This document shows, in pieces, positions 24,382 to 25,541 of a stretch of DNA of 64,000 nucleotides. This DNA is from Escherichia phage ManiMatter_Bas94, in the sequence record PQ850617.1. One strand, 5' to 3'. A model generated the notes under the pieces. That model worked only from the letters and a program-made list of their open reading frames with translations. It searched no databases and was not told the origin of the DNA. The position numbers and the translations under genes were made by a program. How positions within the stretch are numbered: the first letter of the stretch is position 1; the number at the start of each line of letters is the position of its first letter.

Positions 24382-25022
24382 GCGATCATTCCTTGAAATT
24401 CTTCTTTATCAAAATGTTTTTCTACCACATATTCATACAGGTCTTTTAACTCTGCATAACGACGATAGAAAGTTCCGTGTGACATGCCAATAGTTTTCTG
24501 AATGTGGTCATGAGGAATACCCAAGAAAATCATTGAGAACATATTAGCTAACTTCTGAGTATCCATCGTATCACTTAAATCTTGGAAGAAGTAAAAGATA
24601 CGGGACTCCATGAATGGGTCACCAACAGAATCTTGCTTATCCATAGCAATCTCTAGAGGACTGTCCACCATATCAGGAGTACGGAACATATCAGCCTCTG
24701 GAATGGAGTATATACGACGATCCCCCACAGTCTGCCTATTTGAACGTATAGACCAGATAATATTCTTGACTCGATAAGTCATATGCTCTTGGTCTTTCTC
24801 ATCCTCTAGGATTCTCTCATCCTGCCTAGCGAAGACAAATCTCCAAGCGTTCAAGAGCACTTCTTGTGCCACATCTTCTGCTTCGTGATAATCCCTGATA
24901 TCATACATGAAGAACTTGTGAACTACTTTCCAATTCACTTTATAAAACTCTTCATAATTTGAGATGTACTTAATAGGGATTCCATGAATGCGATATCTTG
25001 TAGGTGTTGTCTTCTTCGCCAT
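24378..25022 (-). CDS. Phage-encoded sigma factor (ECF-like)
   Basis: Region-2-like [14 protein letters not shown] and C-terminal [19 protein letters not shown]. Confidence 0.55.
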
Positions 25023-25282
25023 TATTCTATTCCACGCTCTTTCAGAGCTTCTAACAATCCATTGTGATTAGCAGCACATTCTGTGTACTGGTCCTGATAC
25101 CACTCCAACGCAGTGGCTAGTGCTTTTCCTTGAGCACTTTCTAAAAAAGGTAGGTCAACCCTACACTCAGCTTTTAGGTTTGTTGGTAAGGGCATTGATT
25201 GCCTGCTGCTGTCGCTCGTTGAACATGCGGATGTAGTCATCACTAGCGCAGACATTATAAAAAACTGGTTTAGTTTTCTCAT
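25022..25282 (-). CDS. Small Cys/Pro-containing protein in alternative frame (o-spanin candidate)
   Basis: Overlaps 3' end of previous ORF in another frame; [20 protein letters not shown] lipobox-like, Pro and Cys in mature part. Confidence 0.3.
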
Positions 25283-25541
25283 AATGCATCTCTTTATAAA
25301 TAGTTTCCGTGTTCTTCTTCCAGTTAGATAAACCGGTAAGAACTCTCTGAGCAACTTCATCAGCTGCCTTGCTTCTTTCAATCTCTAACTCTTGTTGATG
25401 CTTTTCTTTATCCAGATTGTTACTATCTGTTCTGTACTCATTAAACTTCATTCCGCCAAAGAACACCAGAGCAGAGAAGATAACAAATCCTAGATTATCA
25501 CTTAAAGTGCTTTGCATATTGACCCCAACGAAAAAAGCCAC
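25167..25541 (-). CDS. Membrane protein with periplasmic coiled coil (i-spanin candidate)
   Basis: N-terminal TM LGFVIFSALVFFGG then charged helical region. Confidence 0.35.
   Translation of the reverse strand: MAFFVGVNMQSTLSDNLGFVIFSALVFFGGMKFNEYRTDSNNLDKEKHQQELEIERSKAADEVAQRVLTGLSNWKKNTETIYKEMHYEKTKPVFYNVCASDDYIRMFNERQQQAINALTNKPKS

Follow-up and report, generated by a model that had tools for sequence, protein, structure and literature searches.

A predicted overlapped spanin pair in the leftward early/middle gene block of Escherichia phage ManiMatter_Bas94

Spanin genes occur in embedded, overlapped and separated architectures, and periplasmic cysteines for intermolecular disulfides are near-universal in their products (Kongari et al. 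2018, PMC6139136). The closest described systems are the pairs of phages phiEco32, NJ01, ECBP2 and KBNP1711, which the tables of that survey give as overlapped i-/o-spanins. The gene model set out there comprises 116 + 86 amino acids (aa), a 19-aa signal, an overlap of 115-116 nucleotides (nt) and the lipoboxes TMSA, NLSA and SMSS (PMC6139136). The i-spanins of the phiEco32 group were assigned to a family 'JH2' together with those of Felix O1-like phages, and the o-spanins form a family of their own, 'NJ01' (PMC6139136). We analyzed a 64,000-nt stretch of Escherichia phage ManiMatter_Bas94 (PQ850617.1), hereafter the window, in which two overlapping minus-strand open reading frames (ORFs) very likely encode the two-component overlapped spanin of a Kuravirus-like (phiEco32-group) podophage. 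A spanin pair is already known for this phage group, having been catalogued in close relatives in 2018.

Two better-known systems frame the comparison. As in the lambda Rz/Rz1 pair, the window would encode a type II inner-membrane protein and, from the +1 frame, an outer-membrane lipoprotein, with periplasmic cysteines. Unlike the lambda pair, it shows no detectable sequence similarity to Rz/Rz1 (Pfam returned no spanin-family match); Rz1 is fully embedded in Rz, whereas the putative o-spanin gene extends 145 nt past the i-spanin gene, and the lambda genes lie beside S and R in a lysis cassette, whereas the window pair is 17.5 kb away from its lysis genes on the other strand. PseT.3/PseT.2 of T4 are of similar size (117 + 83 aa) and likewise unlinked from holin and endolysin (PMC6139136), but the T4 genes are separated rather than overlapped. 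No record named as a T4-type phage was among the tblastn matches listed for the o-spanin.

The 2.1 kb around the pair (24300-26400) shares 99.2% nt identity with Escherichia phage JacquesWildberger_Bas92 (Bas92) and is 98.2% identical to phage LAMP. This region matched 98 phage records, almost all from Escherichia or Shigella. The relatives that were fetched with a taxonomy line are Gordonclarkvirinae (the phiEco32 group), and we assign the source, by its sequence, to the Kuravirus-like (phiEco32-group) podophages of E. coli.

The two overlapping reading frames

The pair and its signals are located as follows.

25167..25517, minus strand: predicted i-spanin gene, 116 aa (ORF, PHROG 1152, annotated orthologues)
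25449..25493, minus strand: predicted membrane anchor, i-spanin codons 9-23, LGFVIFSALVFFGGM (Kyte-Doolittle; TMpred for the Paul orthologue)
25022..25282, minus strand: predicted o-spanin gene, 86 aa, comprising a 19-aa signal and a 67-aa mature lipoprotein (ORF, PHROG 2425, orthologues)
25223..25234, minus strand: predicted lipobox, o-spanin codons 17-20, T-S-A-C (sequence, 8-phage comparison)
25167..25282, minus strand: dual-coding overlap, 116 nt (i-spanin codons 79-116 plus stop; o-spanin codons 1-39)

A previous annotation of this DNA from its letters alone (the sequence-only reading) had described an ORF at 25167-25541 with one N-terminal transmembrane segment and a charged domain. We found both traits, with a likely shift of the start. 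The longest version of the ORF opens at GTG 25541 and encodes 124 aa, but this codon falls within a terminator hairpin (25553-25536). The ATG at 25517, with GGGG five nt upstream, is the start in annotated orthologues and gives a product of 116 aa. It is most likely the true start. The hydrophobic stretch covers residues 9-23 (best 15-aa Kyte-Doolittle window 2.23, from residue 9), and the transmembrane segment of the orthologue in phage Paul is annotated at 8-23 by TMpred. The tail is 33% charged and carries a single cysteine, C90. In a PHROG profile search the protein matched PHROG 1152, 'Rz-like spanin' (E 2.9e-38), and it is 91-100% identical to the annotated i-spanins of Paul, IMEP8 and Bas92. 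It is a member of the JH2 family.

Structural predictions for this family agree on helix. The survey tables give 61% helix (JPred) for the periplasmic domain of the phiEco32 i-spanin and list one predicted coiled-coil segment for that of NJ01 (PMC6139136). Our single-sequence AlphaFold2 model of the window protein was helical throughout, at low confidence (predicted local distance difference test, pLDDT, 58.6). The periplasmic domain is thus predicted to be mainly alpha-helical or coiled-coil. A PDB sequence search with the i-spanin yielded chance-level matches only (E 0.1-0.2).

The second ORF was confirmed as that reading had placed it, overlapping the 3' end of the first in another frame and running from Met 25282 to 25022. 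Read in the +1 frame with respect to the i-spanin, it encodes 86 aa, covers the last 116 nt of the i-spanin gene and continues 145 nt past its end, which corresponds to the 'overlapped' class. Its N-terminus has a basic n-region (MRK), a hydrophobic core and the lipobox TTSA before Cys20, so that the lipobox-like TSAC noted earlier is indeed present. Cys20 is the predicted lipid-attachment site, and the residues from this position on are CSTSD, i.e. Ser-Thr after the cysteine, with no Asp at +2. The mature protein of 67 aa has two further cysteines, C40 and C69, so both members of the pair have periplasmic cysteines suited to disulfides. The earlier description of a short 'Cys/Pro-containing' protein therefore held for cysteine (C20, C40, C69) and less so for proline, as the product is weakly Pro-rich, with 3 Pro.

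Lipoprotein prediction is available for the Paul orthologue CPT_Paul_035, whose record gives a LipoP signal peptidase II score of 18.03 with cleavage at 19/20. The window protein satisfied our lipobox pattern scan; the LipoP figure is that of the Paul orthologue. In the profile search the o-spanin matched PHROG 2425, to which no function is assigned (E 4.7e-27), and weakly PHROG 456, 'Rz-like spanin' (E 1.5e-3). The survey tables give 46% helix (JPred) for the mature phiEco32 o-spanin (PMC6139136).

The resemblance to overlapped spanins that the sequence-only reading had pointed to is supported by the PHROG 1152 match, the annotation of Paul and the Kongari 2018 catalogue. Paul was annotated by the Center for Phage Technology, with CPT_Paul_036 as i-spanin and CPT_Paul_035 as o-spanin; the window proteins are 91% and 94% identical to these, and the o-spanin is 96.5% identical to that of NJ01. 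Across the phiEco32, NJ01, ECBP2, KBNP1711 and Paul pairs the window resembles its relatives in lengths, 19-aa signal, overlap and strand (91-97% aa identity), and also in the 248-aa gene and terminator upstream and the sigma gene downstream. It differs from them in its lipobox, TTSA before the Cys, where the orthologues have TMSA, SMSA, SLSA, NLSA or SMSS. It also differs from Paul, in which a macro-domain gene directly follows the o-spanin gene and separates it from the sigma gene; the window o-spanin abuts the sigma gene directly.

More distant relatives were detected by tblastn with the o-spanin, which found ORFs of 30-38% identity in Felix O1-like, Erwinia, Sashavirus-like and other phages. 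Many of these are annotated as o-spanins and overlap an i-spanin. Citrobacter phage Michonne (Felix O1-type; CPT_Michonne139/138) has the same i-spanin family, sizes, overlapped layout and upstream terminator. Its i-spanin keeps C90 in a YEKTK.VF.N.CA motif, and its o-spanin keeps C20 and C69. Michonne differs in being a myophage with no sigma gene nearby, in an identity of 35-37% and in an o-spanin without C40. In the retrieved Michonne sequence (L010, KT001916; 2220-2770 and 4234-5028), terminator, i-spanin and o-spanin are followed about 1.5 kb downstream by a macro-domain gene. These comparisons hint at a module common to Felix O1-like myophages and these podophages.

Selection on both frames and replacement of the signal peptide

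We aligned the spanin pair of eight phages at the DNA level and compared the variable sites. In the part coding for the i-spanin only, 44 of 78 third codon positions varied against 32 of 157 others (p = 6e-8). The part coding for the o-spanin only gave the same contrast (27/49 third positions against 18/96 others, p = 2e-5). Within the overlap, 20 of 116 sites (17%) were variable, compared with 121 of 380 (32%) in the single-coding flanks (Fisher p = 0.002). The lipobox residues S18, A19 and C20 were invariant in the eight phages, with T, M or L at position -3. Substitutions at the Ser18 and Ala19 codons were silent in the o-spanin frame and non-synonymous in the i-spanin (R97S, M98L). Both reading frames are maintained by selection.

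A natural rearrangement bears on the lipoprotein signal. EK010 (1-960 of retrieved sequence L006, LC553734) and PAS59 (1-931 of L005, OQ921332) carry an HNH homing-endonuclease gene within the spanin overlap, which splits the pair; KM01 probably has an HNH insertion too. In both phages the C-terminus of the i-spanin is recoded, and the o-spanin has acquired an unrelated signal peptide, for which the 3' end of the HNH gene codes in a different frame. The new signal reads …KKKLLSCTGILLAFSLSA before the Cys in EK010 (…LLAFSLSA, then C) and MLTKKKQKSCLVIFLASSLMA before the Cys in PAS59 (…FLASSLMA, then C). Both replacements join the unchanged mature sequence at the lipobox cysteine. Because a lipoprotein signal has been preserved through the HNH rearrangement, we regard this as strong evidence that the function under selection is lipidation at Cys20. 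The insertions may also show in concrete form how spanin genes pass from the overlapped to the separated arrangement. In EK010, vestiges persist of the former i-spanin 3' end and, as a dead stretch of 31 codons, of the former signal peptide.

Lysis genes, transcription and neighboring genes

The genes and signals around the pair, and the lysis genes, are listed here.

6766..6984, plus strand: predicted holin gene (PHROG 11161, E 1.2e-48)
7014..7505, plus strand: predicted endolysin gene (PHROG 7, E 5.4e-46)
24378..25022, minus strand: predicted ECF-type (extracytoplasmic function) sigma factor gene, gp36 homologue (PHROG 1740, E 1.6e-45)
25529..25553, minus strand: G+C-rich hairpin resembling an intrinsic terminator, AGCCACC-UUCG-GGUGGCU followed by a T run, shortly before the i-spanin gene
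26381..26389, minus strand: candidate gp36 promoter element, TAATGTATA (exact match)

The holin and endolysin genes are situated among tail genes on the other strand, at about 17.5 kb from the spanin pair, in line with the distance of about 18 kb given in the sequence-only reading. The oddity implied there does not hold. In all Kuraviruses the holin and endolysin genes are found amid those for late morphogenesis (PMC7881722), and the T4 spanins are unlinked from t and e (PMC6139136). Separation of spanins from the endolysin is therefore not unusual: it is the norm for Kuraviruses and has a precedent in T4.

We scanned the six frames of the 64 kb for other lipoprotein ORFs, requiring an ATG, GTG or TTG start, a hydrophobic core after a basic n-region, the absence of acidic residues and a lipobox Cys at position 13-31. 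Three matches were obtained, and only the ORF at 25282 pairs with a membrane-anchored protein. The match at 51226-51417 (plus strand, TTG) is a shadow ORF antisense to a 120-aa ORF, and that at 52638-52456 (minus strand, GTG) is a shadow ORF lying out of frame inside a 103-aa ORF without a membrane helix; both were rejected. A unimolecular spanin of the T1 gp11 type was rejected as well, as the o-spanin C-terminus is hydrophilic and the other lipobox matches in the window are shadow ORFs. By these sequence features, no ORF of the window other than that at 25282 is a credible lipoprotein gene, and neither the window scan nor the full annotation of Bas92 offered another spanin candidate. Of the two outcomes that the sequence-only reading had named as refuting its view, rejection of the second ORF by lipoprotein predictors and spanins elsewhere in the genome, neither was seen, LipoP having accepted the Paul orthologue. 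The early region also contains a 50-aa ORF (51389-51541, minus strand; MSKLDMKLLAAAVVICALALVTQRTSG...) with a hydrophobic N-terminal segment and no lipobox; its product is predicted to be a small membrane or secreted protein.

Within the leftward early/middle block, the spanin pair immediately precedes the phage sigma gene. The minus-strand order is a 248-aa gene (ending at 25575), the terminator-like hairpin, i-spanin, o-spanin and sigma gene, and the o-spanin TAA stop and the sigma ATG have one base in common. The leftward genes of phiEco32 belong to the early and middle classes, with the sigma gene gp36 in the middle class (PMC8948821, PMC12276001). Two features lie downstream of the pair. 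The gene at 24112-24381 (minus strand), labelled 'deoxynucleoside monophosphate kinase', is just 89 aa long, and its product aligns only with the C-terminal DUF3310 part of the 176-aa PHROG 26149 profile. A GTP-binding-protein gene that lies between the sigma gene and the kinase-labelled gene in Paul and IMEP8 is absent from the window, in keeping with the smaller genome size (about 68 kb) of the LAMP/Bas92 lineage.

The consensus of middle/late promoters of the gp36 sigma factor is tAATGTAtA (PMC8948821). The element TAATGTATA at 26381-26389 (minus strand), ahead of the 248-aa gene, is the nearest same-strand candidate promoter upstream of the pair, and we infer that it may drive the spanin genes. 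Other exact matches occur at 1034-1042 (plus), 17917-17925 (plus), 26453-26461 (plus) and 31892-31900 (minus). This leaves two on the late (plus) strand and two on the middle (minus) strand, besides the stray match at 26453 (plus), which faces away from any gene in an AT-rich 420-nt gap (26322-26742). A copy with one mismatch, TAATATATA, lies at 6745-6753 (plus strand), 13 nt upstream of the holin start. The AATGTA 6-mer was not enriched in the window (41 occurrences against 43.7 in shuffles), and the 9-mer with one mismatch was at chance level overall, so that only a well-placed 9-mer is informative.

At the position of the hairpin, the Paul record annotates a terminator, as the Michonne record does upstream of its i-spanin gene. 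In the 57 nt between the terminator and the i-spanin gene, neither the gp36 motif search nor a sigma-70 consensus scan detected a site. The spanins are probably read through a leaky terminator, with modest expression. A sigma-70-like match (ATGAGA-17-TATAAT, 10/12) was seen within the dual-coding overlap at 25254-25282 (minus strand). Transcripts from such a promoter would begin between the o-spanin ATG and the sigma gene. Its -10 element is TACAAT in Bas88 and EK010, and the count of sigma-70-like matches in the spanin region was close to that in shuffles. In phiEco32, a sigma-70 promoter was predicted inside the gene upstream of the sigma gene (PMC8948821).

The position of the pair, which follows a conserved terminator and in this phage is translationally coupled to the sigma gene that it immediately precedes, might be functional rather than incidental, though we consider this improbable. 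One version would tie spanin dosage or timing to the switch to sigma-gp36 transcription. In another, the promoter at 25282-25254 would drive the first expression of sigma, and the overlap would then be triple-purpose, if true.

Alternative readings and the proposed role in lysis

Several observations weigh against the assignment as a spanin pair. In the literature searched, we found no experiments on any member of this spanin family, and the search for Bas92 returned nothing relevant. Pfam gave no match for either protein, and the AlphaFold2 model of the i-spanin was too low in confidence for a fold search. The N-terminus of the i-spanin, MQSTLSDN, contains no Lys or Arg, and that of the NJ01 i-spanin is flagged as net negative in the survey tables (Kongari 2018, PMC6139136). 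The positive-inside rule does not back an N-in/C-out topology, because the N-terminus has no positive charge; the proposed N-in/C-out (type II) orientation of the i-spanin rests on analogy. In the o-spanin, the window has Thr at lipobox position -3, where its relatives carry Met or Leu. The textbook consensus at -3 is [LVI]. The Kongari supplement text examined included no lipobox ending in TSA, and it offered no precedent for Thr at -3 with Ser-Ala. The Shine-Dalgarno sequence before the o-spanin ATG at 25282 is weak (GAG). Finally, the automatic annotation in the GenBank records of Bas92, NJ01, ES17, O18-011 and IMEP8 gives only a 57-aa (174-nt) ORF from the internal Met30. This truncated ORF (window 25022-25195, minus strand; 20723-20896 in retrieved sequence L001) misses the signal peptide and lipobox. 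Its product is labelled 'hypothetical protein' in the nearest records, but 'o-spanin' in IMEP8, and the NJ01 record leaves the i-spanin unannotated.

These gene calls, together with the weak Shine-Dalgarno sequence and the non-canonical Thr, would fit a locus in which only the membrane protein and a cytoplasmic 57-aa product starting at Met30 (MPLPTNLK...) are real, the lipoprotein signal being an accident of the alternative frame. This is hardly credible given that Ser-Ala-Cys has not varied, the substitutions in its codons altering the i-spanin alone, and that in EK010 and PAS59, where the overlap is gone, a new signal with a canonical lipobox leads to the same Cys. The LipoP score of the Paul orthologue (18.0) also speaks against it. 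In the survey's tables, the curators treat the deposited o-spanin starts as wrong and move them upstream, which makes the short start a gene-calling error (PMC6139136). It is slightly easier, though still very unlikely, to see the pair as an envelope-modifying or superinfection-exclusion module made before lysis in the manner of T5 Llp, rather than as a lysis device. Such a module would suit genes in an early/middle leftward block beside a sigma factor and away from the lysis genes, in a family known here from sequence alone. However, the overlapped arrangement of a type-II protein and a lipoprotein, the sizes, the periplasmic cysteines and the homology all fit spanins. The phage would otherwise have no spanin, and the T4 spanins are likewise away from the lysis genes.

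The least probable of these alternatives takes the pair as a membrane-anchored anti-sigma-like module for the ECF-type sigma gene just downstream, with translational coupling between the o-spanin ORF and that gene. A gene for a single-pass membrane anti-sigma factor is commonly transcribed together with an ECF sigma gene, and here the o-spanin stop and the sigma start share a base. However, the roughly 8 residues before the membrane helix are too few for a cytoplasmic anti-sigma domain, and another gene separates the o-spanin from the sigma gene in Paul, Bas88, PAS59 and EK010. The homologous Michonne pair has no sigma gene nearby, and the known regulator of gp36 is gp79 (PMC12276001).

For the spanin assignment, we build on the reading frames, signals, homology and selection described above and infer localization, complex formation, membrane fusion and timing by analogy with the lambda Rz/Rz1 model. 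The i-spanin would be anchored in the inner membrane via its N-terminal helix, with its helical domain reaching into the periplasm. The o-spanin precursor would be lipidated at Cys20, cut by signal peptidase II and, having no Asp at +2, sorted to the inner leaflet of the outer membrane. The C-terminal regions of the two proteins would bind each other in a complex that spans the periplasm, and disulfides via conserved cysteines (C90 of the i-spanin, C69 of the o-spanin) probably hold the spanins as covalent homodimers. Such complexes would be inactive while the murein mesh is intact. Once the wall is destroyed by the holin and endolysin of the late operon, the spanins would fuse the inner and outer membranes and thereby disrupt the outer one. 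As their activity would be blocked by intact murein, early synthesis should be harmless, and the spanin genes would need neither co-regulation with the holin nor a lysis cassette.

The pair would complete the lysis set of this phage (holin, endolysin and spanins), and its import beyond correct annotation is small. The 86-aa ORF is the better gene model compared with the 57-aa hypothetical protein of Bas92, NJ01, ES17 and O18-011. For therapy with Kuravirus-like phages, or for their engineering, it helps to know that the spanins lie in the early/middle block, apart from the holin and endolysin.

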